A stretch of 64,000 nt of DNA, from contig JBHLQM010000009.1 of the NCBI GenBank assembly GCA_048884785.1, positions 6,279-70,278 of the forward strand, read 5' to 3'. This document shows positions 42,685 to 58,710 of this stretch, piece by piece. The notes under the pieces are model-generated. The model made no database searches, was not told the DNA's origin, and worked only from the letters and a program-made list of their open reading frames with translations. Within the stretch, counting starts at the first letter, position 1. Every line of letters begins with the position of its first letter. This DNA is from Candidatus Thorarchaeota archaeon (GTDB taxonomy: Archaea > Asgardarchaeota > Thorarchaeia > Thorarchaeales > Thorarchaeaceae). The translations under genes were made by a program, and so were the position numbers.

Positions 42685-42873
42685 AGCTGTCTACCTCCTT
42701 TCGCCTATGACGCTCACAAGTCATTGTCCATAAATCGTCAAGTCCATGCAAATATGTCTTGTACCTATGCTAGAAACGCTTTAAACACTACAACGCATTT
42801 TGTTTTTTGCTATCGAGTTGCACGCTCTATTTAACTTGATATGCGCCACAAATGGCAATAAGAGGAATAGCGT

Positions 42874-45800
42874 TTGAGTGCCACTCCAACACCAACAACA
42901 GCCAAACGTAAGATTGGTTTTATGACACTACTTAGTTCAGTCTTTATTATTGCCATGATCGTCTGGGGCACGTACACCATAATTTTGATACAGGCTGGAG
43001 AAGTCAGGCAGCAGACTCCTCACACAAATCTCGATGATGTCCCACCTTGGATTTATGATTTGAACTGGAATGGCGGAAGAAGCAATTGGTTTGATAACAT
43101 CAATTATACAGATCTTCCACTAGACCAGATGCTTCCGGAAGACCTACTTGCACAGATGAATAACACACTATTTGTGGTTGAACCCGCAGACCCTGCGCAA
43201 CTGTGGAGAAGTAGCGCATATGACTCGTATGATGGATCTGGGTGGAGTAAGACCCTAATTGGAAGTACTCCTCTAGCGGCCACACCCAGAGCTCAAGCGA
43301 TTAATGAGATATACACAATCAGCATGAATGTTACAGTCAGTCCAAATATTGAGCCAATCGAACTACCATCGCTCTTTCCCAATATTAGAGTCATAGAGAA
43401 TTCGTTCCGAACATTTCCTGCAGGGCGGCTTATTGACTATGAGCTTGAAACAGATCAATACGACACGTTACTCTTCAGTCCATTTCTCTCTGGCTCCCTT
43501 GATGAAACCATCCTGATTAGCTATGATATCACGTATGATACTCAGGATGTGAATCATATAGAAACGCATGCGCGCTCTGGGGACTTTGCCGATGCCGAGA
43601 TTCAACGAATCTATGGCGATGTCGGAGTGACGCTCTCGCAGACAGTCATTGATGAAATCACTCCCTTCGAAACAGTTGGTAATACTGCCTATGAAAAAGC
43701 AATGGCTGTTGATGTCTTTTTCAGGAATAACTATCAGCTTCTAATAGATAGCGAGAATATTACTCAGCGTCCGCAAGGCCAAGAGTTGACGGAATGGTTC
43801 ATTGAACGAGGTGGGGGCTTACCAATGGACTTCGCCACAGCATACTGCGTCTTCATGCGCTATCTGGGGATTCCTGCTCGTATGACTCTAGGATATGCTA
43901 TAGGTGAACCCGATCCTGACGGGGGCGATTTTCGTTTAGTTCAAGTAAAACACATGATGTTCTGGGCAGAGGTCTATATCCCTCAGGACGACGGGCCAGG
44001 GCAGTGGATTCAGGTGATTCCGCTACCGTTGCCTCCTGGTTTTGGTGGTGGCGCACTACCCGAAAACTTCGATGAGGCTGATGTGAGTCTCTTGGTGTTT
44101 ACTCAACCTTGGGTTGAGATAGGGACGGACTTCAACATCTATGCTATTCTCTACGTGAATGGGGTTCCTGTAAACACCCCGGAGAATATCCGATTCTACG
44201 ATTTGACCGAAGGTGTAGATATTGGAATAGCTACAATAGAGCCCGCTCTCATTCCATTCGCAAATATCACACACCAATTTCCACCAGGTTCGTCAGTGGG
44301 AGCACACAATATTTCCGCGATGTGGGTTTCATCAACATTTCTTATTGCCAACTATACGTCCATTATTGCTGTTGGTCAGTCGAATCCTTTTCAAGCCCCT
44401 CCTTCGCAAACTTCTACGAGTTTTATTCCAAGTGAGATTATTGACATAAACATCAGCCTTGCACTGGATACCTATGTTGCCCATTGGAATGATACTCTAC
44501 GGGTTCATGGTGTGATGCGCATTTCGGGCGTTCCAGCAAATGGAACTGAGCTTGGCTTACTAGGTAACAATCAGATGTGGATTATGTGGGATGGATTGTG
44601 GTATGGAAATGCTACCATTGGTGATGATGGATACTATGAATTAGACATCATTGTGGATGGAACAGACATCATACGAATGACCCTAGAGCAACATAATGTA
44701 TCTGCATTCTTTGCTGGAATATACGATAAGCAAACAGGTTTTCCTATTGTGTTTCCTGGCCAATCGGCTAATTCGGTAGTGACTCTTCGGGGGTCGCCTG
44801 GATTCTATTTGACGGTAGCCCCTATCAATACCTATGGGGGAGGTAGTATAACATACGAAGGCATTGCGTACCTTTTCAATGGGACTCCATTGGTCGGTGA
44901 AACAATTGGAATACTCTTCGATGGATCGATAATTGACACCGCTATAACAAATGCCACTGGTGGGTTCAACTATGTATACAATATTCCACTACTTCATCCA
45001 TCTGGTGTATTTGATGCCGCTGTTAACTGGACCTCGACATATCCCCAGATTGACGGTGCAACAAGCAGTCCAATAGCAATCACAATTCAAAGTGGAAGCA
45101 CAACACTGACCATTGACTCCACTCCAAAGGATCCCTATCCTGTCCATATCTATGAAACAATTACAATCTTTGGGACACTCACAGTGTCTTCAGACGGAAC
45201 CCCACTTATTGGAAGAACAATTGAAATCTGGTGGGATTGGAATAACGGAACGGTACAACTCATCGGTACAAATACAACAATTGCTGGCGGATTTTATGAG
45301 TTCTCCTATAATATTCCTGCGGGATCAGAAGGAACCTCGACATACTGGACCGAATGGGACGCATCTGCTGAACCTAATTATCAAGATGGAATCTCATCTA
45401 CAATGGATATCGTCGTCAAAAGGTATGATATTATAGTTATTATTGACACAATACAGAGTTCTGTGGTTGTGGGTGAAGAACTGGACATCCAAGGATTCGT
45501 CTATCTTCCTGAAATTCCGGCTGTACTGGGTGGTGCTCATCTAACTCTTTGGTGGCAAAATGGAACTGGAACTCACAATATCACTGGAGTGTATACCAGT
45601 GTTGCAACAGGCATATACACATTCAATTATACAGTCCCTGTAACACACGAACTGGCTGGCGTACAACTATGGGCTGAGTATATTTCCGAGTCCCCAATGC
45701 TTAGCAGCAACATATCACTCTCTCTTGGAGTTGTAGTACGAAACTATTACTCCTATATCTCAATTCTATCAAACACATCTATCGTGCACCTAAACGAGTC

Positions 45801-48800
45801 TGTTTTAATCTATGGGTTTCTTCAACATGAAAATGGAACGCCTCTTGCTGGACTTGACGTTGATATACAATGGAACAATGGAACATCCTATTGGTTCCAG
45901 GTTGTCACGAATAGCAGTGGCTGGTATGAATTCTTGTATAACTGTTCCCCATCAACTGATAGTGAAGGAATTGTTACAGTAAGTGCATATCATACTTCTA
46001 TAGATCCTAGCTATAGTAGTTCAAGTGCAAGTTTGAGTCCCGCTCTCACCCTACAACTCTATCAGTTGACATTGGATGCAGACGTTGTTTCTAACAATGT
46101 TCACTTAGATGAAGTGATACAATTCTCTGGAACACTGACACTTGATGTGACAGGCACACCCATTGCTGGCGCTACAATTGTTGTCTATTATCAAAACAGC
46201 ACTGGCACATACACATTTCCAAAAGTCACTGATTTTGCTGGAGGTTTCTTTTTCCAGTACAACTGCTCGCTGAATGATGCACTTGGTGCCGTTTATGTCT
46301 GGGCTCAATACACGAGTCTTAACCCTCTATGGGACAATGCAATCTCATTGAATCGGACTGTCAACCTAATTCTCTACTCTATGACGCTGACAACAAATAC
46401 TGATAGTGTATCCTATTTCATTGATGATACAGTATACATCTGGGGCCAATTGACCTATACACACAACTCAACGCCTCTTCCGGGGCAATTAATCCAAATA
46501 TACTGGTATAATGGGTCAATAATCCCTCTGGGTTCATTTTCTACAAATTCGAGTGGCTATTTCGAATATTTCTACACCCTGCAACCAGGAAAGGATTCAG
46601 AAGGTTTTGTTACAGTCTGGGCGACATTCGCAACGTCGGTACCCCTATGGGATGATGCCGATTCAACTCCCGGAACAACATTTTCAGTTAACAAGTATGC
46701 AGTGATTATTGACGTTACAGTTGTCCCGAATCTTCAGTATCTGAACCGAAGCATAACCATACAGGCTCATATTTACTTCAGTCACAACGCAACCAATATT
46801 GCTGGTGCATCATTATCTCTCTGGTGGCAGAATGCTAGCATATACCTGCTTTCAACTGGTTTTAGTGATGGTTCCGGTAATTACCAATTCATATACTCTG
46901 GAATGGATGATGACACGTTCTTGACAGGTATTCAGATTTTTGCCAACTACTCAGGGTCTGCATACCTCCAAAACGCACAGTCATCTCCACAGAGTCTTAC
47001 ACTTCAGCGGTGGCTGACTCTAATCACTGGATTTGATACAGGTGGTGTCACTACTTTTCTGCTTACTGACACTCTGGTTGTTACGGGAACCCTGTTCTAT
47101 GACCTCACAGGGCCAGATGTTCCATATGGTGGAGCCATTGTTCAAATCCTTGTAGATGGCTCTGTTGTTAATACAACGACCACCGCATCGGATGGTACCT
47201 TCATAGGATATTGGGAGATTCCTGACATAACGCCTGTAGGAAATTATGACATTTCAGTGCGCCACTTATCAAGTGTCAACTGGATTGCTGATTATACCTC
47301 CTCACCCATATCAATCTCCATTCAGGCAATTACTATCATATGGATTTTTGAAGCGAACCCTACTATCGTTTATAGAAGCGAATGGCTGAATATCTCGGGG
47401 ATTTTGAGTCTTAGTAATGGCAGTCCATATGCAGGAGCTTCGGTACAACTCTACTGGCTGAACACAATAACAGCAACTGGTCAAATTCTCCTTGACACTG
47501 TTTCAACTGATGCAGGTGGAAGATTTGAGTATTGGTATCTTCTTAGCGACACTGAAGATCTAGGACCTACGCAGATCTGGGCAGAGTGCTCATCTGGTGT
47601 TCCTATAATAGGTGCGGGAATGTCCTCAGTAGAGCTCATAGATGTCATGCAGATTCCTGTGAACCTGACTGGAGGTGGTAGCCATACTCTAATCTATCTG
47701 GGAGATACAATTACCTTTAGTGGTACACTAACATTTGGTAATGGAACTCCAATGGTTGGCTACGGTGTTGAAGTCATCTGGGATGGTATCACCTTGGTAA
47801 CCATTACTATCACAGACGGGATTTCAGGTTCGTTCTCATATGATTATTATTTGGACTATGATGAGCCCGTGCGAACACTCACATACTACATTCAATTTGC
47901 GAAACCTTCAGAAGCCTATTCGGATGCACAGACTGCAAGTCAAGACCTTGAGATTCGCGACCTTATAACAATCGCAATTGATTCTCAGACAGTATTCTCT
48001 ATTATTCGAGGTGATACACTTCAGGTCACTGGCTTAGTAGCAAATTCCGGTGGACCTGATGTTGGGGTTCCACTTGAGCTTTTGCTAAATGGTGGTCAAG
48101 CAGGCATCTATGCTATCAGCGATACATTTGGTGAGTTTTCTTTTAATTTCCAGATTCGAAGGACTTACTCTCCCGGAATATACAATATCAGTGTGGGAGT
48201 GAACTCCCTGAACTATGATGTTACTGGATCTTCGGGTTACTGGATTATTCAATTGAATATAACCTCAGAAATTAGTGTTACATTTCTCAATCCATCTGAC
48301 ATCATGCCTGGTGAAACCTTTACGATATCGTTTACGATTCTCGACGATGACGGGAACACACCAGTAGGAGAACAAGTATCCATCTATCTATTGGAAGAAA
48401 ATGCCGGAGGTCCCAGCCCCGTTCTAATTGCTATTGTTGATATTCTTCCTGCAGGGCAGAATATCCATACGCTGACAATCAGTCTTGGTTCTTGGACAGG
48501 GAATGGCCTTTATTTTGCAGAGGTCAGATATTCAGGAAGCCAATTTGTTGTTGGTTCCTCAGATTCTACTTCACAGAGTATTCATGTTTTTGCAGATGCT
48601 GGATTCGTCAACTTAGGGCCCGGCATTGCTGTTCCGGCTCAACCAATCACTCTGACTGGCAATCTACTGGATTTAGAAGGAATTCCAATAAAGAATAGAT
48701 CGATAACGCTTACATTGAATGATTCGAGTGTTGTTACGCTAACAACCGGAACGGATGGTTCATTTCGTTATGACCTACCAGTAACCTATAGCGGTGAAGC

Positions 48801-49056
48801 AACATACACATATCGATGCCTATTTCTAAAGGCCGATGGTTCACGCGTAGAGGCAACACATACATTTCCAATAACTTCTGGGTTTGGTCCAGGCTTCAGC
48901 ACAGCTTTGTTAATTACATGGGCTGTAATTATAGCAATTGAGGCAATGGCAGCAATGCTAATTGTTGCACGATTTAGATATGGAAAAGGGTTTGGACTAG
49001 GTAGACTAGGTTTCCGAGCTCGCGCAACAGAAATACATGATTCATTAGTAGGGTGA
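42874..49056 (+). CDS. 2060-aa membrane-anchored surface protein: N-terminal TM, transglutaminase-like core, about 14 CarboxypepD_reg-like beta-sandwich repeats, C-terminal TM
   Basis: WRSSAYDSYDGSGW and MDFATAYCVFMRYLGIPARMTLGY ... HMMFWAEVY (TGase-like core, about 43666-44028). Periodic G.L....G.P..G..I.I.W repeats. Hydrophobic segments at both ends. TTG start with GAGGA upstream. Confidence 0.8.
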   Translation: MSATPTPTTAKRKIGFMTLLSSVFIIAMIVWGTYTIILIQAGEVRQQTPHTNLDDVPPWIYDLNWNGGRSNWFDNINYTDLPLDQMLPEDLLAQMNNTLFVVEPADPAQLWRSSAYDSYDGSGWSKTLIGSTPLAATPRAQAINEIYTISMNVTVSPNIEPIELPSLFPNIRVIENSFRTFPAGRLIDYELETDQYDTLLFSPFLSGSLDETILISYDITYDTQDVNHIETHARSGDFADAEIQRIYGDVGVTLSQTVIDEITPFETVGNTAYEKAMAVDVFFRNNYQLLIDSENITQRPQGQELTEWFIERGGGLPMDFATAYCVFMRYLGIPARMTLGYAIGEPDPDGGDFRLVQVKHMMFWAEVYIPQDDGPGQWIQVIPLPLPPGFGGGALPENFDEADVSLLVFTQPWVEIGTDFNIYAILYVNGVPVNTPENIRFYDLTEGVDIGIATIEPALIPFANITHQFPPGSSVGAHNISAMWVSSTFLIANYTSIIAVGQSNPFQAPPSQTSTSFIPSEIIDINISLALDTYVAHWNDTLRVHGVMRISGVPANGTELGLLGNNQMWIMWDGLWYGNATIGDDGYYELDIIVDGTDIIRMTLEQHNVSAFFAGIYDKQTGFPIVFPGQSANSVVTLRGSPGFYLTVAPINTYGGGSITYEGIAYLFNGTPLVGETIGILFDGSIIDTAITNATGGFNYVYNIPLLHPSGVFDAAVNWTSTYPQIDGATSSPIAITIQSGSTTLTIDSTPKDPYPVHIYETITIFGTLTVSSDGTPLIGRTIEIWWDWNNGTVQLIGTNTTIAGGFYEFSYNIPAGSEGTSTYWTEWDASAEPNYQDGISSTMDIVVKRYDIIVIIDTIQSSVVVGEELDIQGFVYLPEIPAVLGGAHLTLWWQNGTGTHNITGVYTSVATGIYTFNYTVPVTHELAGVQLWAEYISESPMLSSNISLSLGVVVRNYYSYISILSNTSIVHLNESVLIYGFLQHENGTPLAGLDVDIQWNNGTSYWFQVVTNSSGWYEFLYNCSPSTDSEGIVTVSAYHTSIDPSYSSSSASLSPALTLQLYQLTLDADVVSNNVHLDEVIQFSGTLTLDVTGTPIAGATIVVYYQNSTGTYTFPKVTDFAGGFFFQYNCSLNDALGAVYVWAQYTSLNPLWDNAISLNRTVNLILYSMTLTTNTDSVSYFIDDTVYIWGQLTYTHNSTPLPGQLIQIYWYNGSIIPLGSFSTNSSGYFEYFYTLQPGKDSEGFVTVWATFATSVPLWDDADSTPGTTFSVNKYAVIIDVTVVPNLQYLNRSITIQAHIYFSHNATNIAGASLSLWWQNASIYLLSTGFSDGSGNYQFIYSGMDDDTFLTGIQIFANYSGSAYLQNAQSSPQSLTLQRWLTLITGFDTGGVTTFLLTDTLVVTGTLFYDLTGPDVPYGGAIVQILVDGSVVNTTTTASDGTFIGYWEIPDITPVGNYDISVRHLSSVNWIADYTSSPISISIQAITIIWIFEANPTIVYRSEWLNISGILSLSNGSPYAGASVQLYWLNTITATGQILLDTVSTDAGGRFEYWYLLSDTEDLGPTQIWAECSSGVPIIGAGMSSVELIDVMQIPVNLTGGGSHTLIYLGDTITFSGTLTFGNGTPMVGYGVEVIWDGITLVTITITDGISGSFSYDYYLDYDEPVRTLTYYIQFAKPSEAYSDAQTASQDLEIRDLITIAIDSQTVFSIIRGDTLQVTGLVANSGGPDVGVPLELLLNGGQAGIYAISDTFGEFSFNFQIRRTYSPGIYNISVGVNSLNYDVTGSSGYWIIQLNITSEISVTFLNPSDIMPGETFTISFTILDDDGNTPVGEQVSIYLLEENAGGPSPVLIAIVDILPAGQNIHTLTISLGSWTGNGLYFAEVRYSGSQFVVGSSDSTSQSIHVFADAGFVNLGPGIAVPAQPITLTGNLLDLEGIPIKNRSITLTLNDSSVVTLTTGTDGSFRYDLPVTYSGEATYTYRCLFLKADGSRVEATHTFPITSGFGPGFSTALLITWAVIIAIEAMAAMLIVARFRYGKGFGLGRLGFRARATEIHDSLVG
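44400..48850 (+). repeat. protein-level tandem repeats (about 14 modules of about 95-110 aa) inside the giant ORF
   Basis: Recurring module, e.g. ITIFGTLTVSSDGTPLIGRTIEIWWDWNNGT...GGFYEFSYNIP, VLIYGFLQHENGTPLAGLDVDIQWNNGTS...SGWYEFLYNCS, and IQFSGTLTLDVTGTPIAGATIVVYYQNSTGT...GGFFFQYNCS. Boundaries are approximate. Confidence 0.75.
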
Positions 49057-49520
49057 TAAGAATGCAGATTGACATCAACATCATAATGCCAATTGTTGCA
49101 CTCTCAGGTGCTGTGATTGTGGTACTCCTATACCTCTACTTTGTCAAAGGCATGTTTAAGGGTACAATCAGGACTGTTGCATCTGTAGACATCCCTGGCA
49201 AGCTAAGAAACATCAAGAAGCTTGCAGATGCAGGTAAATATGATGCGGCAATAACATTGGCTTTCCGCACCTTTGAGCAGATGTGCGGGATGAAAATTGG
49301 GTCGGAAAGAATGTCCTCTGAAACAGCAAGGGAGTACATAGAGAGAGTTCTCAAAGTAATACCTCTTGATGCAGAATCAGTTGAAGAATTCGTCAGAGCC
49401 TATGAAGAAGCCAGATTCTCAGGTCATGATATCTCTCGAGATCGATACGAGCTGGCCATCAAGGTCTTCACTGACATTTATCCGCGCATAGAAGGTGCAA
49501 CACCAATAAGGGCTGAGTGA
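49053..49520 (+). CDS. DUF4129-like membrane-anchored protein
   Basis: N-terminal TM. The C-terminal TAREYIERV ... FVRAYEEARFSGHDISRDRYE pattern is typical of DUF4129. The GTG start overlaps the upstream stop (GTGA). Confidence 0.55.
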   Translation: MIRMQIDINIIMPIVALSGAVIVVLLYLYFVKGMFKGTIRTVASVDIPGKLRNIKKLADAGKYDAAITLAFRTFEQMCGMKIGSERMSSETAREYIERVLKVIPLDAESVEEFVRAYEEARFSGHDISRDRYELAIKVFTDIYPRIEGATPIRAE

Positions 49521-50941
49521 AGAAGGGATACCGAGGAGCGATATCAATGGGATGGAAGGAAGCCTTGCAGATTGGGATTTTTGTTTTAGCATGGCTCCCA
49601 ATTGGTTTCTTAGCCGGAGTTACAGTCTTTGGCAATCCTCCCAATCTCTATGACAATATGGATTTTTCAATCTATAATACCAACTGGAACGGATGCAGTA
49701 ATTTCAGGATTCAGATCGAGCAAGATGGATTCAGTACATTATCTATTCAATCAACTATGAGTGTTATCACCCGATACAATGGGAGTGCAGTTCTCTTTAT
49801 TATGGGCCCTGTAAAAGACTTCACTTTTGATATACTTACGATTTTCCAGCATCTCATCGCTGGGGGTACAGTTGTAATAGCAGATGACTTTGGAACTGCA
49901 AATAGCTCGCTGTATTTGCTTAATTCCTACTTATTTAATCAGACAGGAGCAGCAAGTTTTCTAAGTGCCTTAGGAGTAACTGGATTTCTCTCATTCACAA
50001 AGGGTGTGGTCATGGATCTTGATTCCTACTACCTAAGCCCAAGGTTGCCAATAATACGTGATTTCCACCCTTATCATCCAATCACTTCTGGCGTTTCTGA
50101 GTTGTATCTAAACAATGCATCTGCGATTACCCCAACATGTGCACTTGGAGCTGCAGGAATAGCTTGGACAACAAATAGGGCGTGGAGTGAAACTGATGTA
50201 GATAATGCCACGCCAAGTCCAGACCTAAACGAATGGGCTGGAACCTTGCCAATAATAGGAGCTCTCGACTTATCGCTTATTTGGGCTGGCGCAGGAAAGC
50301 TAGTGGCAATTTCAGATCCTAGCATATTCATAAACGATATGTGGGATGAGTTTGATGGCAATCGACGCCTGGGTAGGAATTTAGTCAACTGGATAACTGA
50401 TGGAAATCCTGAGATTCCGATTATCTTTAGTGAGGAAACACTTGCAACGCCTATTATTTCTGGAGAGTTCTTCTTTGGAAGTTTTATGGGACGAATGCTC
50501 TGGGCAAGCACGAATGTCTTCCTAGCCCCAATTTATCCCCTAATGACAGCAGTGGGATTGAAGAAATACCTCCCAGATATGAAGAAGCCTGAGATGAAGA
50601 GTGTTTCAGAGGTCTTCATGAGAAGAGGACAGACCTACTTTAGCGAACGAATGACTTACTATAGAACTGAAGGAAACTATGCACGAGTTGTAAAGATGCT
50701 ATATCGAAAACTACGTCGATCACTCACCAAAAAATACCAGTGGAGTGAGTACAATAAGAAGAAGGTCTGGGACCTAATTCAGTATAGAGATCCTTCAATA
50801 AAAGAGGGGGCTTTCTTCAAGACAATAGATAGGATTGAAGAAATCTCCTCGAGACAGAATGTTAGAATAAGAGAGAGCGAAATGATGAAGCTCTTCTTTT
50901 GGATGAGGAACATCCAAGATAAACTAATTGAAGCGAAATGA
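49517..50941 (+). CDS. DUF4350-like membrane protein (TM, extracytoplasmic domain, TM, cytoplasmic tail)
   Basis: Topology and operon position. VLFIMGP ... LIAGGTVVIADDFG resembles DUF4350. The GTG start overlaps the upstream stop. Confidence 0.4.
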   Translation: MKKGYRGAISMGWKEALQIGIFVLAWLPIGFLAGVTVFGNPPNLYDNMDFSIYNTNWNGCSNFRIQIEQDGFSTLSIQSTMSVITRYNGSAVLFIMGPVKDFTFDILTIFQHLIAGGTVVIADDFGTANSSLYLLNSYLFNQTGAASFLSALGVTGFLSFTKGVVMDLDSYYLSPRLPIIRDFHPYHPITSGVSELYLNNASAITPTCALGAAGIAWTTNRAWSETDVDNATPSPDLNEWAGTLPIIGALDLSLIWAGAGKLVAISDPSIFINDMWDEFDGNRRLGRNLVNWITDGNPEIPIIFSEETLATPIISGEFFFGSFMGRMLWASTNVFLAPIYPLMTAVGLKKYLPDMKKPEMKSVSEVFMRRGQTYFSERMTYYRTEGNYARVVKMLYRKLRRSLTKKYQWSEYNKKKVWDLIQYRDPSIKEGAFFKTIDRIEEISSRQNVRIRESEMMKLFFWMRNIQDKLIEAK

Positions 50942-50956
50942 GGTGGAACAGAATAA

Positions 50957-51940
50957 ATGACAGAAGCAACCGGCCCCAATGAAGAAATCCTTGGTCCACC
51001 CATGACCATTTCGGAGGTGCATGATCTCACATCTGAGATTCTTCGCGAGTGTGGAAGAATAATTGTCGGCAAAATAGACATAATGCGCGACACGCTAATT
51101 GCTTTCCTCTCCAATGGTCATGTGGTTCTTGAGGGTGTGCCAGGTCTTGCGAAGACGTACATGGCTCGTACATTCGCGGCAGTCCTTGGATGCGCTTTCA
51201 AGAGGATTCAGCTAACGGTGGACACTCTACCTGCTGATCTTTTGGGGAGCAACGTATTCAATCAGAAGACTGGCGAGTTCTGGTTTCGAAAAGGACCTGT
51301 GTTTTCCAATCTGGTTTTAGCCGATGAGATTAACAGATGTCCTCCAAAATCTCAAAGTGCACTGCTCGAAGTTATGGAGGAGCGCCAAGTATCAACCGAA
51401 GGTGTGACGCGAAAGCTACCTGAGCCTTTCCTAATCATCGCAACCCAGAACCCTGTTGAACAAGAGGGCACATATCCTCTACCAGAAGCACAGCTTGATA
51501 GATTCATGTTCAGATTGATATTGGACTATCCAACTGGCTCCGAAGAGGCGGAGGTTGTTCGCAGAAAACATCAAGGTGAAGCCAGTGACCTGCGTGTACT
51601 TGCAGATCCTGGAACAATGATGCGGATGCAAAATACGTGTAGGACTGTATTTGTGGACGAAGATATAATCAACTATATCCGTGATATAATTGTGAAGACT
51701 AGAAATGACCCTCAGATACTGCTAGGCGGCTCGCCCAGAGCATCACTTGTCCTAATGGGCGCTGCAAAGGCGAGAGCGGCAATGCATGGACGGGATTATG
51801 TAGTACCGGAAGATGTCCGAAGACTTGCCGTGCAAGCTTTGAATCACCGTTTGATACTCAAACCAGAAGCAGAACTCGAAGGCCTTACTGTCGATCGAAT
51901 TGTCAGTAAGGTTATGGGAGAGGTAGACTGTCCTCGATAG
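50957..51940 (+). CDS. moxR: MoxR-family AAA+ ATPase
   Basis: Walker A-like LEGVPGLAKT, Walker B LLADEINR, PK.QSALLE.M.E.QV, and ATQNP.E.EGTYPLPEAQLDRF. Confidence 0.9.
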   Translation: MTEATGPNEEILGPPMTISEVHDLTSEILRECGRIIVGKIDIMRDTLIAFLSNGHVVLEGVPGLAKTYMARTFAAVLGCAFKRIQLTVDTLPADLLGSNVFNQKTGEFWFRKGPVFSNLVLADEINRCPPKSQSALLEVMEERQVSTEGVTRKLPEPFLIIATQNPVEQEGTYPLPEAQLDRFMFRLILDYPTGSEEAEVVRRKHQGEASDLRVLADPGTMMRMQNTCRTVFVDEDIINYIRDIIVKTRNDPQILLGGSPRASLVLMGAAKARAAMHGRDYVVPEDVRRLAVQALNHRLILKPEAELEGLTVDRIVSKVMGEVDCPR

Positions 51941-51968
51941 AAGGCGTTCGGCACTGGAGAAGAGCTAG

Positions 51969-53291
51969 ATGATTACGCAGAGAGGGTTTGTGGTTCTGTT
52001 TGCTGGAGTCGTCCTACTGACAAGTGGATTCGCCTTCAACAACTTCTACCTAACTCTGATTGGCGTTTACCTTTGTGTAGGACTTGTTGTAACACTTCCT
52101 CTCTTTGCGATGACGGCTAACATTTCCGGCATTCTTGTGGAACGCTATATTGACAAAGTAAAGGTATTCTCTGGCGATTTTCTAAGGGTAAAAGTCACAA
52201 TTCGAAACACCTCACGGAGGCATTTTGATTTCATTGAAGTCCATGATCAATATCCTGAGCTCTGGATTCTTGCTATTGGAGCTAACTTCATTGCATCGCG
52301 AATTCAACCTGGAGGGAGCATCACCTTCTCTTACATCCTCCAAGTGAGAATGCGGGGGAGGTATTATTTGGGCCCAACAGAGGTAATCATGCGAGATAGA
52401 CTAGGTCTACATTATTACAAGCGCACACTAAAGGAACAGACCGAAGTCTTGGTCTATCCAACATGGAAGGATGTTAGGAGACTTGAAGCCCTCGGGAAGC
52501 AAAGACATCTTGGACGTATGTTTGGAGCACATAGAACCAAAGTCATAGGAATGGGCACTGATTTCGCAGGGTTTAGAGAATATGTCCCAGGGGATTCTTT
52601 TAGGAATATTGACTGGAAAATAAGCGCGAAACGCGGGGATATGATTGTCAGGCAATATGAGATGGAGAAGAATATTCAGGTTGTTTGTATGGTCGACACA
52701 AGTGGATCTATGGGAAATGGATACCCTGAGAACACGAAACTTGAGTATGCTATCAGGGCTGCAGTCCTTCTTTCTCATATGGGCTTGGAACGAAAGGACC
52801 TTGTAGGAACATGTGTATTCAGCGATGTGGTTCACTCTTATGTTCCACCTTCCACTAATCCAAATCACATGTACAATGTCCTTGAATCGCTTGCATTGGC
52901 AGAACCAAAAGGTTGGAGTGACTATGAAACAGCTATATCATATGTCACTCAACAGACCAAGAAACGATCATTCATTATCTGGCTCACAGACTTGGAGGAA
53001 TCTCCAGCACCACTCCTAAATGCTATGAAGTCGGTCATCGCTAATGGACATAAGGCCATGGTCATCAGTCCTTTTGGCCCATGGTTTGAAGCTCCGGTTG
53101 GACAGTTTGGCCCTGTCGAGAAAGTGCTTTCTGAAGCCGTCTCTGAGGAGCTATGGGAGCGCCGGCAAAAAATTACTCGGGCTCTAGCAAGATTCGGAAT
53201 CAATGTTGTTAACGTCGGTCCAGAAGATTTCTTGCCGACTATTATCAAGCAGTATGAAACTGCAAAACAGAAGGGGGTTGCGATGTTTTGA
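51969..53291 (+). CDS. DUF58 protein (vWA-like domain), partner of MoxR
   Basis: Signature FREYVPGDSFRNIDWKISAKRGDMIVRQYEME, followed by the vWA-like VVCMVDTSGSM. Confidence 0.85.
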   Translation: MITQRGFVVLFAGVVLLTSGFAFNNFYLTLIGVYLCVGLVVTLPLFAMTANISGILVERYIDKVKVFSGDFLRVKVTIRNTSRRHFDFIEVHDQYPELWILAIGANFIASRIQPGGSITFSYILQVRMRGRYYLGPTEVIMRDRLGLHYYKRTLKEQTEVLVYPTWKDVRRLEALGKQRHLGRMFGAHRTKVIGMGTDFAGFREYVPGDSFRNIDWKISAKRGDMIVRQYEMEKNIQVVCMVDTSGSMGNGYPENTKLEYAIRAAVLLSHMGLERKDLVGTCVFSDVVHSYVPPSTNPNHMYNVLESLALAEPKGWSDYETAISYVTQQTKKRSFIIWLTDLEESPAPLLNAMKSVIANGHKAMVISPFGPWFEAPVGQFGPVEKVLSEAVSEELWERRQKITRALARFGINVVNVGPEDFLPTIIKQYETAKQKGVAMF

Positions 53292-54670
53292 GAGCTATCA
53301 CTTGGGTTTTGCGAATACTTTCTACTGCTGCCTTCATTGGGATGTGTCTCCTAGTCTACGATGCAATGAGAGGATACTGGGATTGGGACGCTCCATACAT
53401 ATTCATTGTGACAGTTTTCCGTTTGATATCCATGGTTCTTTTCTTTGTTGGATCACTTGTCATGGTTGGCCTTGTTGCGCCTTTCACAGGAGGAACTCCT
53501 AGTGATGCGCTTGTCGGCCTGTATAACACGCAACTTCTTAGGATGTGGTACATGCAGCCTTATGGCGTTACTGGACCTTTTACATCAGTGAATCAAGTCT
53601 TCAACAGCTTCATTTCTAATATTGGAGGGATCTGGAGGATTCTTTCTGAGTACTCATTCACATTTCTGTATTTTTTGGGTGCTGCACTCGGTATCGCCTT
53701 CTTTCTCCAATCACTTGTACGAATGGAACACAAGTTTGTTGGCGGAGCTTTTCTTGGGATTCAATCTGTTTTGATTGTTGCCGCTTACCGTTTGATAACA
53801 ATTCCGAATTTTGAGGGCGGCTTCCCGGCTGATTTCTTCAGTTTTCTATCAAGCGGAGTTCAAATTCTGGCTCTAGTTTCTTTTGCCTATATTGAGATAA
53901 GCTATCAGATGATTTATAGTGATTCTGTTGGAAAACCTGTTGAAGAGCGTGAAAACACACTCAAGAAACAACTGCTGGCCCTGCGTCAAACGACAAGAAA
54001 GCAAGAATCAATAGAACGTGGTGAAAAGGTTAGTACAACGGCTATGAGTCGGACTTCAGGAGCTACAGCATTCTCCTTCCTAAGAGAAGCAATAGAACGA
54101 AGGGTGTTTGGTGGCAAAGAAGTAGTTGAAAGCCTTGACGCAATTGCAGACGTGCGGCGACTTCAGATTTTTGTGGATGAGCTATTTTCGGCTGATCCAG
54201 ATGCACGGGATGAGCTCACAGCAAAAGCTGCTGCTCCATCTTCTGGCTATGTAATATCCTCAACTATCATTGGATCTGCTGTTCGGTTTGTAGGAGTAAT
54301 AACAATCTCATTTGTTTTTATGAACCCCGCGTTTTTCACAGTGTTGTTCAATCTTCCACCAGGTGTTGAGAATAGTGTTGAAATACTTCAACCCGAGCTA
54401 GTCGTCTTTTTCATGGTTCCTATTCTTTTTCTCTTTGTACTGATAGCAATGGTAATCAGCTGGAATACAGCTCGTGAAGTTCCTGAGAAGGCGAAACTGC
54501 CTTCAGAAGAAAAGGAGAAGCAAAAACAGAGAAAGAAAGAGATTGCGATCAAAAGAAAGGCTGCAAGGGAGTCCCGGAAGGAGCGCGAAAGGGCAAGAAG
54601 GAAGCGAAAGGAGTCCGGTGAAGGAAAAGATGAATGGGATAGAGCCCTTGAAGATACATTCAAGAGATGA
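53288..54670 (+). CDS. polytopic membrane protein with a Lys/Arg/Glu-rich C-terminal tail
   Basis: Multiple hydrophobic segments. Tail: EKAKLPSEEKEKQKQRKKEIAIKRKAARESRKERERARRKRKESGEGK. The TTG start overlaps the DUF58 stop (TTGA). Confidence 0.55.
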   Translation: MRAITWVLRILSTAAFIGMCLLVYDAMRGYWDWDAPYIFIVTVFRLISMVLFFVGSLVMVGLVAPFTGGTPSDALVGLYNTQLLRMWYMQPYGVTGPFTSVNQVFNSFISNIGGIWRILSEYSFTFLYFLGAALGIAFFLQSLVRMEHKFVGGAFLGIQSVLIVAAYRLITIPNFEGGFPADFFSFLSSGVQILALVSFAYIEISYQMIYSDSVGKPVEERENTLKKQLLALRQTTRKQESIERGEKVSTTAMSRTSGATAFSFLREAIERRVFGGKEVVESLDAIADVRRLQIFVDELFSADPDARDELTAKAAAPSSGYVISSTIIGSAVRFVGVITISFVFMNPAFFTVLFNLPPGVENSVEILQPELVVFFMVPILFLFVLIAMVISWNTAREVPEKAKLPSEEKEKQKQRKKEIAIKRKAARESRKERERARRKRKESGEGKDEWDRALEDTFKR

Positions 54671-54692: not shown

Positions 54693-55664
54693 ATGAAATC
54701 TATCGTTCTATCTCATGGAGATGCTGATGGAATCACTTCGGGTGCCATATCGATGCTCGCATTTCCAGGGTCCACATTCTACTTTTCCAAACCATCTCAG
54801 ATTCACAGTGATCTCTATAGAATCTCAAAAGACCGCCCGGATTCTGTTTGTATCAGTGATATCGCTGTGAACGAGATGCACATGGATCACATTTTGCGTG
54901 CCTTGGACAGATTTCCCGACTCATCAAAGATTATTTGGATAGACCATCATCCCATTGGAAAGAAGAATCTCAAGGAACTGGAAGATCGTGGTGAGATAAT
55001 CCATGAAATTGGTTGCGCCGCTTCAGAATTGGCGTATAGAAGATTCCAAAACGAAGTCCCTGAATATGCTCTCCGTCTTGCGCTCTATGGTGCTATTGGG
55101 GATTATTGTGATGGGACTCCTTTTGCCCAGCTTCATTTTGAGGACTATGATAAGAGAACACTATACCTGGAAGCCGGCCTTCTAGTGCAAGCATTGCAGG
55201 AAATTGACTATAAGAAAGAATCCAAAGATCTCCTCCATGAACTAACACTGGGTGTTGCACCAAGTGCTATGAACAACATAGTAGAACTAGCAATGAAAGC
55301 AACACGAATCGAGCATGAAGTCTTTCGGTATGTGAAGGCTAATGCACGAAAACTCGGTCGAGTTGGATATATTTTAGACATGCCAATTCAAGGCTATCGC
55401 GGCAAATCAGCAAAGTTCGCAGCATATGTTACTGACTCAAATATCGGTATTAGTGCAAAGTCAACGGAAGACGAGGTAGATATGAGTATCAGAAGGCGTG
55501 CCCTAGAAGTGGATTTGAATCAGGCTCTCAATAAGATACTTCCAGAACTCATTGATGCTCACGGAGGTGGGCACCCCGCTGCTGCAGGCGCCACCATGAA
55601 CAGAAATGAGTTTCCGATGTTTGTTCAACGACTGGCTGAATATGTTGAGCAAAATATCAGCTGA
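54693..55664 (+). CDS. DHH/DHHA1 family phosphoesterase (NrnA/RecJ-like)
   Basis: HGDADGITS, WIDHHP, and GGGHPAAAGA motifs. Confidence 0.7.
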   Translation: MKSIVLSHGDADGITSGAISMLAFPGSTFYFSKPSQIHSDLYRISKDRPDSVCISDIAVNEMHMDHILRALDRFPDSSKIIWIDHHPIGKKNLKELEDRGEIIHEIGCAASELAYRRFQNEVPEYALRLALYGAIGDYCDGTPFAQLHFEDYDKRTLYLEAGLLVQALQEIDYKKESKDLLHELTLGVAPSAMNNIVELAMKATRIEHEVFRYVKANARKLGRVGYILDMPIQGYRGKSAKFAAYVTDSNIGISAKSTEDEVDMSIRRRALEVDLNQALNKILPELIDAHGGGHPAAAGATMNRNEFPMFVQRLAEYVEQNIS

Positions 55665-57813
55665 AGAACAGAATTGCGCTATAGAGCACCCAAATGACTG
55701 TAATTATTGCTTCTCCAGCAATAATGCCGCTAAGCAATTTCATTACTTTTCGGTATTTCGGCGTTTCAGTTGGATCTTCACCCGATTGAAGCGAATGCTG
55801 CTTCTTTAGGCGATAGTCTATGTACCCACCGAATAGCATGGCGATAGTTGTCGCTGGTGGTATCAAAAGGCCTACCGCAAGACTCATGGGACTTAGTCCA
55901 CGTTTAGTCAATTCACGTCCGGCGAGGAATCCTACCACGGCAAATAGTACCAAGTATAAGAAGGCAAGAATAGGATGGACTCCTGTAAATCGATCCAATC
56001 CTGGGAGCTGAAAATTACTGAGCCCTGTTAGACTTACTACTAGAAAGCCGAATAATTGTGCTGCTGGAGCAGGAAATTCGCTACCACCAAAACCGTATGT
56101 AATGTATAGCATATAGGTAATAAGAGACCCAACAAACGTACCAAGAAGCGCCCCCACAAAGACGGATTTCATCACATCACGCCCCCGGACACCTGTCAAT
56201 GAGCCAAGTTTTAGGTGCACCAGCAAAGCAATCGCAGCATCTTGAAGAGCACCAAGCATTGACATGAATGTTGTAATTGCCTGGAATGTCGTCCTGAATA
56301 GTAGTATTGCTGGTATTGCAACCATATCTGATATGTAGCCTGCCAGCATCCCAGTTTCACTAATCGCTCTAGCTGTGAAATATGCTGATAGAAGAGCTAC
56401 AGGAGCACCAAAGACAAAGAGGATCCAAGAAATATCCAAGTTGGCAAATGGCCTGATTATCGAGAATACAATAATCCCAGTAATCATAAAGAGAAGCATT
56501 GATACCACTGCCACCCAGGGAGGAACCTGCCCTTTTCTTGCTGCGAGATATTCCCTAGGATCTGCAATCATCTCCCGGATTTCTTCCTTTACCACCTCAA
56601 TCGTGAAGAGTTCTTGCTTGACCCGCATTAATCGCGCAATGATTGCATCCTGTGACGAAGTTCTCTCAGTTTTTTCTTCAGCTTCTGTTGAAGTTGCCTT
56701 TGCAGGATTCTCACCTTTCTTACTTGAAAAAACATCTCCGACAATGACAGTCACAAAAATCCCAATTGCCAAGTACAGAATCTCCGGTCGGGTAAGGTGA
56801 TCACCATAGAGAATAGGTGCAGCGCCCTCTAATACAATCCAAATGAATAATGATGCCAAACTTCCAGCAAGCATTATGAGTACCCTCTTCCATCCCACGA
56901 AGAACCCAATTGCTCCAATAAGTGGGGAGTTACTCACTCCAATCCAATCTGGAACCATTGGTGCAATGGCATGTGGAAACGATGAGAGGGTAAGACCCTC
57001 GTTCATAACCTCTGCAACTTTGGTGGTACCAACCCACGCAGCAGATACTGATAATCCTGTAAGAACAGTCACTTTAGATGCCTTATCGGCACCCAAGGAC
57101 TTGATTGTTTCCGCTTGAGGTTTCACTTGAGGCCAAGATTCATGCTCGAACCTGTCCCGAAATGGTGCCATGAGCAGAAGTCCAAAAACAGCACTGATTC
57201 CGGTCACAAATGCAATGAACTGATATGTAATTAGACTTGCAGAAATCTCAGCTGGCGCGAATATAGCTATGGCTGGAAAGGTGATAAGCACTCCAATTGA
57301 AACCATGGATGCACTATTAGCTATGGAAACTACGACTACATTTTCTTGTGGTGTATATTTTCCATTCATACTTAAGAGCAAGAAACCTAATAGCTCAGCC
57401 CCGACAAAATAAACGACGCCCAATTTGAGAGCAAGATAGATCCCCAGAAATGTCATTATTACTCCAACAACTATTCCTGTACCTATCGCCCGCTTAGTAA
57501 GCGGAAATTTCGGTTCACTCATTAGGGCTGCATAAATCGCAAGACCACCTGTTGCCATTACAACTATCTCGGAGAAGGATGTGAGGAGCACTGAAAAAGC
57601 AATGTAGAGGACTGCGGCTACACAAATAAGCCCAAGTCCCTTTTTATCCAGAGGTTTTTGAGTAATTGACCCAATGAGAAGAATAGCCTCAAGTAGGACT
57701 GCAACGAATATCCCATAATCCATTCTCCCCTCCGCAACAACAAGAAGTGCATAGAAAAGGCCTGCTCCAAATAAACCGGCGAGAAGGGCTCTTGTTGACT
57801 CAAGTCGTTTCAT
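55657..57813 (-). CDS. OPT-family oligopeptide transporter-like membrane protein
   Basis: 718 aa with many TM segments. LTKRAIGTGIVVGVIMTFLGIYLALKLG and EFPAPAAQLF resemble OPT signatures. Confidence 0.5.
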   Translation of the reverse strand: MKRLESTRALLAGLFGAGLFYALLVVAEGRMDYGIFVAVLLEAILLIGSITQKPLDKKGLGLICVAAVLYIAFSVLLTSFSEIVVMATGGLAIYAALMSEPKFPLTKRAIGTGIVVGVIMTFLGIYLALKLGVVYFVGAELLGFLLLSMNGKYTPQENVVVVSIANSASMVSIGVLITFPAIAIFAPAEISASLITYQFIAFVTGISAVFGLLLMAPFRDRFEHESWPQVKPQAETIKSLGADKASKVTVLTGLSVSAAWVGTTKVAEVMNEGLTLSSFPHAIAPMVPDWIGVSNSPLIGAIGFFVGWKRVLIMLAGSLASLFIWIVLEGAAPILYGDHLTRPEILYLAIGIFVTVIVGDVFSSKKGENPAKATSTEAEEKTERTSSQDAIIARLMRVKQELFTIEVVKEEIREMIADPREYLAARKGQVPPWVAVVSMLLFMITGIIVFSIIRPFANLDISWILFVFGAPVALLSAYFTARAISETGMLAGYISDMVAIPAILLFRTTFQAITTFMSMLGALQDAAIALLVHLKLGSLTGVRGRDVMKSVFVGALLGTFVGSLITYMLYITYGFGGSEFPAPAAQLFGFLVVSLTGLSNFQLPGLDRFTGVHPILAFLYLVLFAVVGFLAGRELTKRGLSPMSLAVGLLIPPATTIAMLFGGYIDYRLKKQHSLQSGEDPTETPKYRKVMKLLSGIIAGEAIITVIWVLYSAILFFS

Positions 57814-58252: not shown

Positions 58253-58329
58253 TCACGATTTCTTTTTATGGAGTGCTTGCAGCTATCTCGTGAATAACCG
58301 TGTGATAAACCCACGGGGTGAAAATAATA

Positions 58330-58710
58330 ATGTCTGATCCTGTAATGGACGCATATACACAAGCATACAATTCCTCTGGACAAATGATACAGGCGTTTGG
58401 AGTGATTCGGTCTGATGGTGCAGTATTATGGCAGAGTAATAATTGGTCACTTGAAGCAGATGCAAGGAGCCTTGTTGCTGCCGTTACGAGTCGAGCTGCC
58501 AGTGTGACTCAAAATCAGGTCAAATATAGCACAATGCGAACGAGTCCCGAAAGCCTAGTGGCTCGAAGTGTTCAGGGCAATGGTATTCTGGTCCTCGCGA
58601 AGATTGACAATGACAAGTGGGTAGTTGCCTGGGCATCACCTGATGCTGCGCCAGATGGTGTTTATGTTGATGTTGATCGGGCCGCGAAGGCCTTAAAGGG
58701 AAGAATTTAG
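58330..58710 (+). CDS. profilin-like protein 1
   Basis: 126 aa. AFGVIRSDGAVLWQS.NW.L ... VKYSTMR ... LVAR...GNGILVLAKIDNDKWVVAW ... VDRAAKALK follows the profilin fold pattern. GGGGTGA lies 8 nt upstream of the ATG. Confidence 0.65.
   Translation: MSDPVMDAYTQAYNSSGQMIQAFGVIRSDGAVLWQSNNWSLEADARSLVAAVTSRAASVTQNQVKYSTMRTSPESLVARSVQGNGILVLAKIDNDKWVVAWASPDAAPDGVYVDVDRAAKALKGRI

Follow-up and report, generated by a model that had tools for sequence, protein, structure and literature searches.

What does a MoxR-type ATPase do when it is encoded beside DUF58, transglutaminase-like and DUF4350 proteins, and on which partner would it act? To our knowledge, such neighbourhoods are among the most widespread prokaryotic modules that lack an established mechanism. 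TgpA, the transglutaminase-like protein of Pseudomonas aeruginosa, is essential and its role is still unexplained. The question was addressed here for a cluster of six genes (g1–g6) on the + strand of a 64,000-nucleotide stretch of DNA from Candidatus Thorarchaeota archaeon (GenBank assembly GCA_048884785.1, contig JBHLQM010000009.1, positions 6,279 to 70,278), referred to below as the window. The products are, in order, a giant surface protein with a transglutaminase-like head (g1), a small DUF4129 protein (g2), a DUF4350 protein (g3), a MoxR-type AAA+ ATPase (g4), a DUF58 protein (g5) and a polytopic membrane protein (g6). Sequence comparison suggests that the six genes form an operon conserved across Asgard archaea; their coordinates and family assignments are collected in Table 1.

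Conservation of the gene order was assessed by scanning an alignment of g6 against one genome per GTDB species, which yielded 76 loci in which the window proteins were placed by tblastn. All 76 species-representative loci carry Thorarchaeota or other Asgard labels. When only loci with enough flanking sequence were counted, the genes upstream of g6 were found in the expected order for g5 in 70/70, for g4 in 65/65, for g3 in 59/60 and for g2 in 56/57 eligible loci, the lone g3/g2 exception being a 100-N scaffold gap. The N-terminal region of g1 was present in 35 of the 37 loci having at least 9.9 kb upstream. The order is thus kept in essentially all 76 Thorarchaeota-type species genomes, and is found again in Odin-, Baldr- and Heimdall-like contigs. 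A Heimdall-like contig reads immunoglobulin (Ig)-repeat protein, DUF4129, DUF4350, a 56-aa open reading frame (ORF), MoxR, DUF58 and g6; the same order is found in a deeper Thorarchaeota-related lineage, in Odinarchaeia, in Baldrarchaeia and in further contigs, and one additional contig retains DUF58–g6 only. The DUF58–g6 adjacency holds in every locus examined. The Asgard origin proposed in a preliminary description of this DNA was confirmed by the homologues of g6 at 56–80% identity, which are named Thorarchaeota where they are named, with one Sifarchaeia.

The upstream surface protein differs among lineages and the core is unchanged; because the genes flanking the module differ between Asgard classes, the kept order is not simple synteny. 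We consider it about evenly balanced whether the cluster is a vertically inherited Asgard envelope module with a constant core of DUF4350 (GIFT fold, see below), MoxR, DUF58 (vWA) and g6. A similar, middling degree of confidence attaches to the proposal that this core is always preceded by at least one large Ig-repeat surface protein anchored to a cytoplasmic DUF4129 domain. Two apparent departures were examined and rejected: a transglutaminase-less g1 of 1,137 aa in one complete Thorarchaeota genome and the missing g1–g3 in another are artefacts of 100-N gaps. Such scaffold gaps lie inside the module in both "complete" Thorarchaeota chromosomes, CP070761 and CP070658 (loci L001/L056, 2722–2821; L038, 4112–4211 and 8215–8314), and delete the head of g1 in one genome, and g1–g3 with a portion of g4 in the other. 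Assemblies evidently break at the repeat array, and the result can be mistaken for gene loss.

The six + strand genes listed in the preliminary description match exactly, and the letters at their junctions are as given there (GTGA at 49053/49056 and 49517/49520, gaps of 15 and 28 nt, TTGA at 53288/53291); the intergenic gaps within g1–g6 are 0–28 nt. Every protein family that had been named for the cluster was matched by Pfam, i.e. Transglut_core, CarboxypepD_reg, DUF4129, DUF4350, AAA_3 and DUF58/VWA. The proposed translational coupling by overlap held at one junction only. For g2, ATG 49062 agrees with an 80%-identity orthologue and is preceded by a GGTGA Shine-Dalgarno sequence, and it is most likely the true start rather than GTG 49053 of the longest ORF. 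For g3, ATG 49547 gives a protein of 464 aa, the length of a public entry with the very same sequence as the window protein; its orthologues, of 437–480 aa (mostly 450–472), cover 92–100% of this form, and a GAGGAG Shine-Dalgarno sequence lies upstream. This codon, and not GTG 49517 of the longest ORF, is most likely the start of g3. With these two starts both GTGA overlaps turn into gaps, of 5 nt and 26 nt, and two of the three overlaps are probably longest-ORF artefacts. The distance between g5 and g6 is zero in 68 of the 74 orthologous loci, and this is the sole overlap conserved among orthologues.

The surface protein g1 starts with an N-in transmembrane (TM) anchor (aa 14–32), followed by a TgpA-like N-terminal region, 14 Ig-like/prealbumin-like repeats and a C-terminal TM helix (aa 2004–2031); hydrophobic helices at both ends had been anticipated. 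Pfam recognised Transglut_core at aa 270–381 (E 1.6e-12, 48.1 bits versus a cutoff of 23), CarboxypepD_reg (E 1.3e-13) and further Ig-like/prealbumin-like models. Over its first 400 aa, g1 can be aligned to the periplasmic domain of TgpA from P. aeruginosa (6g49, matched by phmmer) and to the putative cysteine protease 3isr. Both alignments agree that the position of the catalytic Cys (GFC/GVC) is taken by Pro317 (nt 43822–43824), in GGGLPMDFATAYCVFMRYLGIPAR, and both give identical spacings from this position, +12 to a conserved Arg and +15 to GIPAR. Met362 occupies the position of the canonical His (HxW) and Ile382 that of the Asp (W..fDPT). The Pro/Met/Ile state is common to 36/36 Thorarchaeota orthologues covering the core. 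The triad positions read Ser-His-Asp in Odinarchaeia and Baldrarchaeia and Asp-His-Glu in the deeper lineage L006, and a Cys nucleophile was present in no examined Asgard version. The transglutaminase-like core of g1 therefore appears to be a catalytically dead pseudoenzyme, and with the triad residues replaced neither cross-linking nor proteolysis by g1 is expected. The earlier assignment as transglutaminase-like stands for the fold, but not for catalysis. The former active-site segment is the best conserved part of the g1 N-terminal region (0.74–0.77 identity versus 0.27–0.70 elsewhere); dead but conserved, it shows the pattern expected of a binding pseudoenzyme, which argues for such a role. 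The multi-TM domain TgpA_N was not recognised above its cutoff in g1 (E 0.0021, 17.5 bits versus a cutoff of 30, over soluble aa 92–157), and the protein has a single N-terminal TM helix.

The estimate of about 14 repeats was substantiated by a hidden Markov model (HMM) seeded with units of g1 itself, which found 14 near-full repeats at aa 532–1997 and a partial one at 464–500. The units are on average 23% identical to one another and line up in order with the 13 units of orthologue L003 (49% identity), and the repeats appear to be old. Detectable units number 12–14 in Thorarchaeota, and 6, 5 and 3 in the ~1,100–1,200-aa proteins of Odin, Heimdall-like and Baldr lineages, respectively. The growth of g1 into a multi-domain giant, as claimed before, is real but not general, the enlargement being limited to Thorarchaeota. 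The suggestion of glycosylation was supported as well: N-X-S/T sequons number 46 in the whole of g1 versus 18.8 expected from composition, and 38 versus 15.3 in the repeats, and the ectodomain is probably heavily glycosylated. The protein is very acidic, with 198 D+E versus 60 K+R. Its C-terminus (aa 1990–2060, nt ~48841–49053) consists of GPGF, a hydrophobic helix and a basic stretch, with ~28 aa after the TM helix; related split forms (see below) keep the motif G.PPG[FL].TALLI.W...E..VA..IV.RYR at this lineage-specific anchor. A PGF-CTERM/archaeosortase signal was considered for this end of g1 and rejected, as three C-terminal tails scanned alone gave no NCBIfam match even at E 10.

DUF4129 had been regarded as an independent component, and this could not be maintained. 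Many Thorarchaeota loci carry a single ORF of ~2,040–2,100 aa comprising the transglutaminase-like head, the repeats, one TM helix and DUF4129, and the lone TM helix of these fused orthologues aligns with the N-terminal helix of g2. An insertion of ~65 aa in the lineage of the window supplies a further TM helix together with a basic loop and a stop codon; the split g1/g2 form is common to twelve further loci, with the new anchor conserved. DUF4129 thus appears to be the cytoplasmic tail of the giant protein, split off in the window lineage with a new TM helix. The cytoplasmic location follows from the K/R residues before the N-terminal anchor, the sequon-rich ectodomain and the one TM helix that precedes DUF4129. 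One Thorarchaeota clade (L029, L030, L032, L042, L045, L049, L052 and L065) has kept the fused tail and carries a second DUF4129 gene of 130 aa, located ~5.8 kb into each full-length locus of the clade; this extra gene is best read as a duplication, not a fission.

The DUF4350 protein g3 comprises an N-terminal TM helix, an ectodomain with the predicted GIFT fold, a second hydrophobic segment and a basic cytoplasmic tail of ~128 aa. The N-terminal TM helix is clear and the second hydrophobic segment is under the Kyte-Doolittle (KD) threshold of 1.6. An AlphaFold2 (AF2) model of g3 has a mean predicted local distance difference test (pLDDT) score of 70, and most of the ectodomain is above 70. 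The top PDB folds retrieved with this model by Foldseek are N-terminal GIFT domains of IFT52: 5fmr_A (E 2.5e-5) and 5fms_B (E 3.9e-5, probability 1.0, target-normalised TM-score 0.70). This points to a GIFT fold of the modelled ectodomain, which agrees with the similarity to GldG reported for arCOG01314 (PMC5898192). PF23355 is recorded as a precomputed match on one Thorarchaeota orthologue; the g3 sequence itself is below the Pfam threshold for IFT52_GIFT, and no solved structure was matched when the PDB was searched with the sequences of g3 and g5. The tail of g3 was inspected for a second DUF4129 domain, which was discarded when BLASTP of g2 against the tail gave no alignment.

A soluble GIFT-type protein was observed near the module in another lineage. 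Two genes downstream of the module on the Heimdall-like ZHAO22-1 scaffold_11 (L005, 12355–13380), a protein of 341 aa without TM helix or signal peptide matches Pfam IFT52_GIFT (E 1e-18, 67.8 bits versus a cutoff of 27.2), with weak OST48_N and DUF4350 matches, and its BLASTP alignment to g3 of the window is weak (E 0.002). By these matches it would be a cytosolic GIFT-domain protein in an Asgard archaeon.

The ATPase g4 covers the full AAA_3 profile (1–131 of 131), with intact Walker A (GVPGLAKT) and Walker B (VLADE) motifs. Its best relative in the PDB is the Cytophaga hutchinsonii MoxR 2r44 (E 2.3e-77), midasin being next (E 6e-19), and identity across Thorarchaeota is 80–92%. By these properties g4 is classed as a typical MRP-type MoxR. 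The gene for its vWA partner, g5, begins 28 nt past g4, and the pairing is kept in 65/65 eligible loci. In g5 an N-terminal two-helix membrane hairpin is followed by an Ig-like domain and a vWA domain, in which the metal ion-dependent adhesion site (MIDAS) motif is intact (DTSGS, aa 243–247); identity across Thorarchaeota is 73–93%. The MoxR gene of the module takes an unusual form on one Odinarchaeia contig (JBQSBV010000010.1; L083, 5334–8582), as an ORF of 1,082 aa with two intein-like insertions, one after ...LLADEINRAPPK (just past Walker B) and one after ...ATQNPLEQEG (sensor-1 region). This intein-bearing stretch of 3.3 kb was left unannotated by the gene caller.

The membrane protein g6 has a conserved cytoplasmic helical hairpin of ~110 aa (aa ~190–302) and a K/R/E-rich C-terminal helix. 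Its AF2 model is all-helical with seven membrane helices and a mean pLDDT of 80.5. The sequence matched no Pfam or NCBIfam family, and Pfam gave no meaningful match in 42 members of the g6 family. With Foldseek the model matched no fold in the PDB (best E 0.32, TM-score ≤0.14); neither the ABC-exporter, SpoIIM and TgpA_N folds nor any other could be assigned to it, and the predicted fold appears to be new. HMMER over 1.84 billion representative proteins returned a family of 79 clusters, of which all named members are Asgard (Thor, Heimdall, Odin, Ran and Baldr lineages).

The position of each part relative to the membrane was deduced from composition and conservation in addition to hydropathy. 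The ectodomains of g1 and g3 contain 5–7% Asn and 17–21% Ser+Thr, and sequons are in addition over-represented in that of g1. Contents of 1–4% Asn and 10–16% Ser+Thr, with no excess of sequons, were found for g4, g5, DUF4129, the g3 tail and the g6 hairpin. The contrast in sequons and composition places the ectodomains of g1 and g3 outside and g4 and g5 inside; g5 resembles the cytoplasmic g4, and not the ectodomains, in both composition and sequon density. Conservation follows a gradient. The mean identity to the window among Thorarchaeota orthologues is 0.82 for MoxR, 0.78–0.87 for the DUF58 domains, 0.77 for the g6 hairpin, 0.67 for the g3 tail and 0.64 for DUF4129; it is 0.53 for the g3 ectodomain, 0.55–0.56 for the TM blocks of g6 and 0.44–0.77 for the N-terminal region of g1, with ectodomain and TM parts at 0.44–0.56. 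Such a gradient is compatible with a machine whose cytoplasmic side is conserved and whose exterior evolves faster, and composition and conservation together suggest that the soluble part of DUF58 is cytoplasmic, with MoxR.

The module combines features of two neighbourhoods that have been described separately. It had been stated that such gene sets are known mainly from bacteria, which is incorrect: an archaeal DUF4350–MoxR–Ig/vWA neighbourhood was reported in 2015 (PMC5898192) and a MoxR–vWA–transglutaminase-like operon of both archaea and bacteria in 2012 (PMC3495828), each as a prediction. Makarova, Galperin and Koonin described the former as arCOG01314 (DUF4350)–MoxR (COG0714)–Ig/vWA and predicted an envelope complex for secretion or membrane remodelling (PMC5898192). 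The arCOG01314 protein belongs to DUF4350 and, like g3, begins with a signal or TM helix, continues with a flavodoxin-like/GldG-like ectodomain and carries a TM helix towards its C-terminus; it adjoins MoxR, an Ig-like plus vWA (DUF58-type) protein, Ig-repeat surface proteins and small polytopic membrane proteins, all of this being prediction only. However, that description, mainly of Euryarchaeota and TACK, names neither a transglutaminase-like protein nor DUF4129, and its listed membrane partners have 2–5 TM helices, whereas g6 has seven and a long cytoplasmic hairpin, a distinction drawn from the description only.

The second neighbourhood is the MoxR–vWA–YebA-like transglutaminase-like operon, common in bacteria and archaea (Zhang and Aravind 2012, PMC3495828). 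In P. aeruginosa PA2875–PA2874–PA2873 (MoxR–DUF58–tgpA) are co-transcribed and the transglutaminase-like domain is periplasmic (PMC3507681). The same three families occur in the window, and there too an external transglutaminase-like domain leads into a TM helix and a DUF4129-type tail. This TgpA/YebA layout of ectodomain, TM helix and DUF4129 is present as one polypeptide in the fused orthologues and as g1 plus g2 in the window, and the N-terminal region of g1 shares the WR..YD.YDG..W motif and the GIPAR helix with 6g49. The differences are considerable. TgpA has Cys-His-Asp, activity in vitro and a multi-TM N-terminal domain, and is devoid of Ig repeats. In g1 the triad positions read Pro/Met/Ile, only one TM helix stands at the N-terminus, 14 beta-sandwich repeats are inserted and the DUF4129 tail is, in this lineage, encoded by a separate gene; the Asgard module adds DUF4350 and g6. 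The arCOG01314 neighbourhood thus appears to correspond to the constant core, and the head, tail, MoxR and DUF58 to the MoxR–vWA–transglutaminase-like operon.

Further likenesses were found in signalling and remodelling systems. The bifidobacterial PFNA cluster (pkb2-fn3-aaa-atp-duf58-tgm; PMC8430577) has an FN3 beta-sandwich surface glycoprotein beside an MRP-type MoxR, DUF58 and a membrane transglutaminase-like protein. It differs in its Ser/Thr kinase, joined in some species by a phosphatase and an FHA protein, in the lack of DUF4350 and g6, and in that its surface protein and transglutaminase-like protein are separate polypeptides. The Esr/MoxR–vWA–beta-propeller systems (10.64898/2026.09.08.750141; Kaur et al. 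2020, PMC7159879) share a surface protein of ~14 Ig repeats, a transglutaminase-family protein, MoxR and vWA. Their beta-propeller head, kinase/phosphatase/FHA relay and effectors are absent from the Asgard loci, g4 belongs to AAA_3 (MRP-type), and the Asgard module is a stable chromosomal core rather than a variable conflict locus. In NorQ/NorD the MoxR ring is plugged by a finger of the vWA domain, carboxylates on the client are required, and hydrolysis of ATP twists or stretches the adaptor so that a client in the membrane is remodelled (PMC9976466, PMC13036017). This pair, a MoxR hexamer with an intact-MIDAS vWA partner, is the template for remodelling used here, with the g4 ring predicted; its client, however, is a respiratory enzyme needing metal insertion, whereas no metalloenzyme lies near the Asgard module and the partners are envelope proteins.

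On this template we put forward, with confidence that is no better than even, an ATP-driven MoxR–vWA remodeller that docks on a membrane platform and assembles or controls a non-catalytic surface protein. The g4 MoxR hexamer would meet the DUF58 adaptor g5, which is tethered to the membrane and has an intact MIDAS, at the cytoplasmic face. The vWA domain would plug the AAA+ ring and the MIDAS would grip a carboxylate of the client, as in other MoxR/vWA pairs. Candidate clients are the conserved cytoplasmic parts, namely DUF4129 (g2), the g3 tail and the helical hairpin of g6. ATP hydrolysis would remodel the platform such that the glycosylated ectodomain of g1, and likewise the GIFT ectodomain of g3, is assembled, inserted or conformationally switched from inside to outside, with the transglutaminase-like head of g1 acting as a conserved, non-catalytic binding module. 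We infer that the subunits form a complex and that the vWA domain of DUF58 lies in the cytoplasm, and likewise infer the clients and the direction of signalling. That an AAA+ chaperone serves a surface or envelope protein, as first suggested in the preliminary description, remains the most plausible reading, and accords with published predictions for related neighbourhoods.

Several points weigh against this remodeller. We know of no experiment on any archaeal member of the module, and the topology is based on hydropathy, the positive-inside rule, composition and conservation. The Ser-His-Asp heads of Odinarchaeia and Baldrarchaeia suggest that the ancestral head may have been a hydrolase, in which case a role in binding only is perhaps limited to Thorarchaeota. 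Furthermore, Makarova et al. drew the Ig–vWA protein as secreted (PMC5898192), and the vWA domain of DUF58, if extracellular, could not touch MoxR directly.

The same authors predicted a secretion or membrane-remodelling complex for the arCOG01314–MoxR–vWA–Ig-like neighbourhood and related DUF4350 to GldG, a protein of the gliding/type IX machinery (PMC5898192), and a secretion or assembly apparatus along these lines would have g6 and g3 form a membrane conduit and MoxR–DUF58 energise the export or anchoring of Ig-repeat or S-layer-like proteins such as g1. The GIFT/GldG-type fold of the g3 ectodomain, the conserved, polytopic and well-predicted novel fold of g6, and the combination of a variable upstream surface protein with a constant core, which suits a machine with changing cargo, are in line with it. 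We nevertheless consider it unlikely: g1 and g3 have ordinary N-terminal signal-anchor helices, for which Sec insertion is enough, MoxR ATPases are known for remodelling and not for translocation, g6 is unlike any known channel (best Foldseek E 0.32), and the cargo, being joined in many genomes to a cytoplasmic DUF4129 tail, looks like a permanent subunit and not like a substrate to be released. Information could also run in the opposite direction, the Ig-repeat filament with its binding head detecting a partner, prey, virus or epibiont and MoxR–vWA transducing the signal across the membrane, much as in the Esr pathway of actinobacteria or in MoxR–vWA–beta-propeller systems. The precedent is a system from a 2026 preprint whose surface protein bears 14 Ig-like repeats and which also contains a transglutaminase-family protein, with MoxR and vWA signalling that epibionts are present (10.64898/2026.09.08.750141); the faster evolution of the exterior relative to the interior is compatible with such a sensor, and g4 does match the bpMoxR model (E 7.5e-10). 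The match to AAA_3 (9e-62) is far better, however, and neither the window nor the related loci contain a kinase, phosphatase, FHA protein, beta-propeller or effector. PADLOC, run on all seven proteins (g1–g7) in search of a known defence system, was silent; the stable synteny among housekeeping genes and in 76 Thorarchaeota-type species genomes is unlike a defence island, and the head of g1 is N-terminal and membrane-proximal in a protein anchored at both ends, leaving no free distal tip. An outside-in sensor is, on balance, a rather improbable account.

Hydrolytic or cross-linking activity has been proposed for the common MoxR–vWA–transglutaminase-like operon, as a membrane-proximal ATP-dependent protease or cross-linker in which MoxR unfolds vWA-recruited substrates that the transglutaminase-like domain cleaves or cross-links (PMC3495828). 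The periplasmic domain of TgpA is transglutaminase-active in vitro (PMC3507681), and the Ser-His-Asp orthologues of Odinarchaeia and Baldrarchaeia could be hydrolases. For Thorarchaeota, to which our estimate applies, the chance of such an enzyme is very slim, given that Pro, Met and Ile replace the triad in the window and in 36 orthologues, that the Cys nucleophile is missing from all Asgard versions examined, and that topology and sequons put the head outside the cell and MoxR in the cytoplasm, so that unfolding and cleavage would not be directly coupled. It is scarcely credible, finally, that the six genes share no function and are merely conserved neighbours. Synteny without an obvious functional link is indeed seen for the downstream DHH and OPT genes in many Thorarchaeota genomes, but the order of g1–g6 survives in deeply diverged Asgard classes with completely different flanks, the gaps between the genes are 0–28 nt, and the same families co-occur in bacteria and other archaea (PMC3495828, PMC5898192, PMC3507681).

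Within the collection of papers searched, none linked Asgard archaea or Thorarchaeota with DUF4350, DUF4129 or DUF58. New here is the merging of both modules in one predicted operon conserved across Asgard archaea, together with the g6 family, which always adjoins DUF58, has named members from Asgard archaea alone and adds a protein family with a new predicted fold. The alignments further point to the absence of the Cys nucleophile from every examined Asgard version and the loss of the whole triad in Thorarchaeota, to growth of the array to 12–14 units in Thorarchaeota only, and to recurrent fission and duplication of the DUF4129 tail. That the head can lose its whole triad and yet stay the most conserved part of the ectodomain argues that the job of the module is binding or structural, at least in Thorarchaeota. 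DUF4129, the g3 tail and the g6 hairpin make up a compact set of candidates for the client of MoxR–vWA. A probably glycosylated surface protein of ~2,000 aa and its dedicated ATPase machinery are candidates for the surface densities and cell–cell contacts of Asgard archaea, which matter in models of syntrophy and eukaryogenesis.

The components also recall eukaryotic proteins. MoxR is the closest prokaryotic relative of the midasin/dynein AAA+ proteins, midasin has a MIDAS vWA domain, non-catalytic transglutaminase-like domains occur in CC2D2A and CEP76, and IFT52 has the GIFT fold. In the Asgard module, which is conserved across classes, MoxR, a MIDAS vWA domain, a GIFT-fold protein and, in Thorarchaeota, a non-catalytic transglutaminase-like domain are encoded together. 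It is a long shot that the operon is the surviving Asgard version of a prokaryotic ensemble behind the eukaryotic ciliary and large-AAA+ machinery; if it were, the co-occurrence might reflect the source ensemble of both machineries. Under that reading a long surface structure would be positioned or remodelled by the module, acting as a membrane-anchored device powered by ATP; the chance of this is just as remote. GIFT and MoxR are widespread in prokaryotes; for this reason, and because g3 falls below the IFT52_GIFT model, a eukaryotic connection is weakly grounded.

Table 1. Features of the six-gene cluster and its surroundings; positions are those of the window, and the longest ORF is given as in the ORF listing.
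Feature	Position (nt)	Strand	Longest ORF (nt)	Description	Evidence
Possible archaeal promoter and ribosome-binding region	42828–42865	+		TATA-like TATTTAA (42828–42834), GAGG (42862–42865), then TTG start (42874)	by eye
g1	42874–49056	+	42874–49056	giant surface protein, 2060 aa	Pfam, repeat HMM, hydropathy, sequon counts, orthologue alignments
Transglutaminase-like core of g1	43681–44016	+			Pfam; alignments to TgpA 6g49 and 3isr
Repeat array of g1	44467–48864	+		14 diverged beta-sandwich repeats, ~105 aa each (CarboxypepD_reg/Big_1/MG2-like)	HMM from own units
g2	49062–49520	+	49053–49520	TM helix and DUF4129 domain, 152 aa	Pfam DUF4129 E 2.6e-12
g3	49547–50941	+	49517–50941	DUF4350 protein, 464 aa	Pfam DUF4350 E 9.3e-9, ABC_transp_aux E 4.8e-5
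g4	50957–51940	+	50957–51940	MoxR-type AAA+ ATPase, 327 aa, no TM helix	AAA_3 E 9.1e-62, AAA_lid_2 E 6.2e-24
g5	51969–53291	+	51969–53291	DUF58 protein, 440 aa	DUF58 E 1.3e-32, VWA_2 E 1.1e-12
g6	53288–54670	+	53288–54670	membrane protein, 460 aa	7 predicted TM helices
g7	54693–55664	+		DHH/DHHA1 phosphoesterase; neighbour, not counted in the module	Pfam DHHA1 E 2e-6
OPT gene	55657–57813	−		OPT oligopeptide transporter	
Profilin-like ORF	58318–58710	+		130 aa	

The sequence ahead of g1 holds a TATTTAA/GAGG pair that may be its promoter and ribosome-binding region. A scan for sigma-70 promoters and terminators gave counts near the shuffled expectation, with models that are bacterial and ill-suited to archaea. 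Downstream, g7 begins 22 nt past g6; its product is RecJ-like but far under the NCBIfam cutoffs, and its 3' end overlaps the convergent OPT gene by 8 nt. The g7–OPT pair is syntenic in many Thorarchaeota genomes and absent from the loci of other Asgard classes. About a third of the Thorarchaeota loci gave no match to g7, contig ends truncating some of these, and the gene is lacking in the Heimdall-like, Odin and Baldr loci. The other neighbours in the window, besides the OPT transporter gene, are the housekeeping genes HD, CYTH, PALP, deaminase and RsmB. Further downstream, the 130-aa ORF has a sub-threshold Profilin match (E 2.1e-4, 21.8 bits versus a cutoff of 25) and is syntenic with profilin-like genes of related Thorarchaeota and Heimdall-like loci; profilin is among the known eukaryotic-signature proteins of Asgard archaea.

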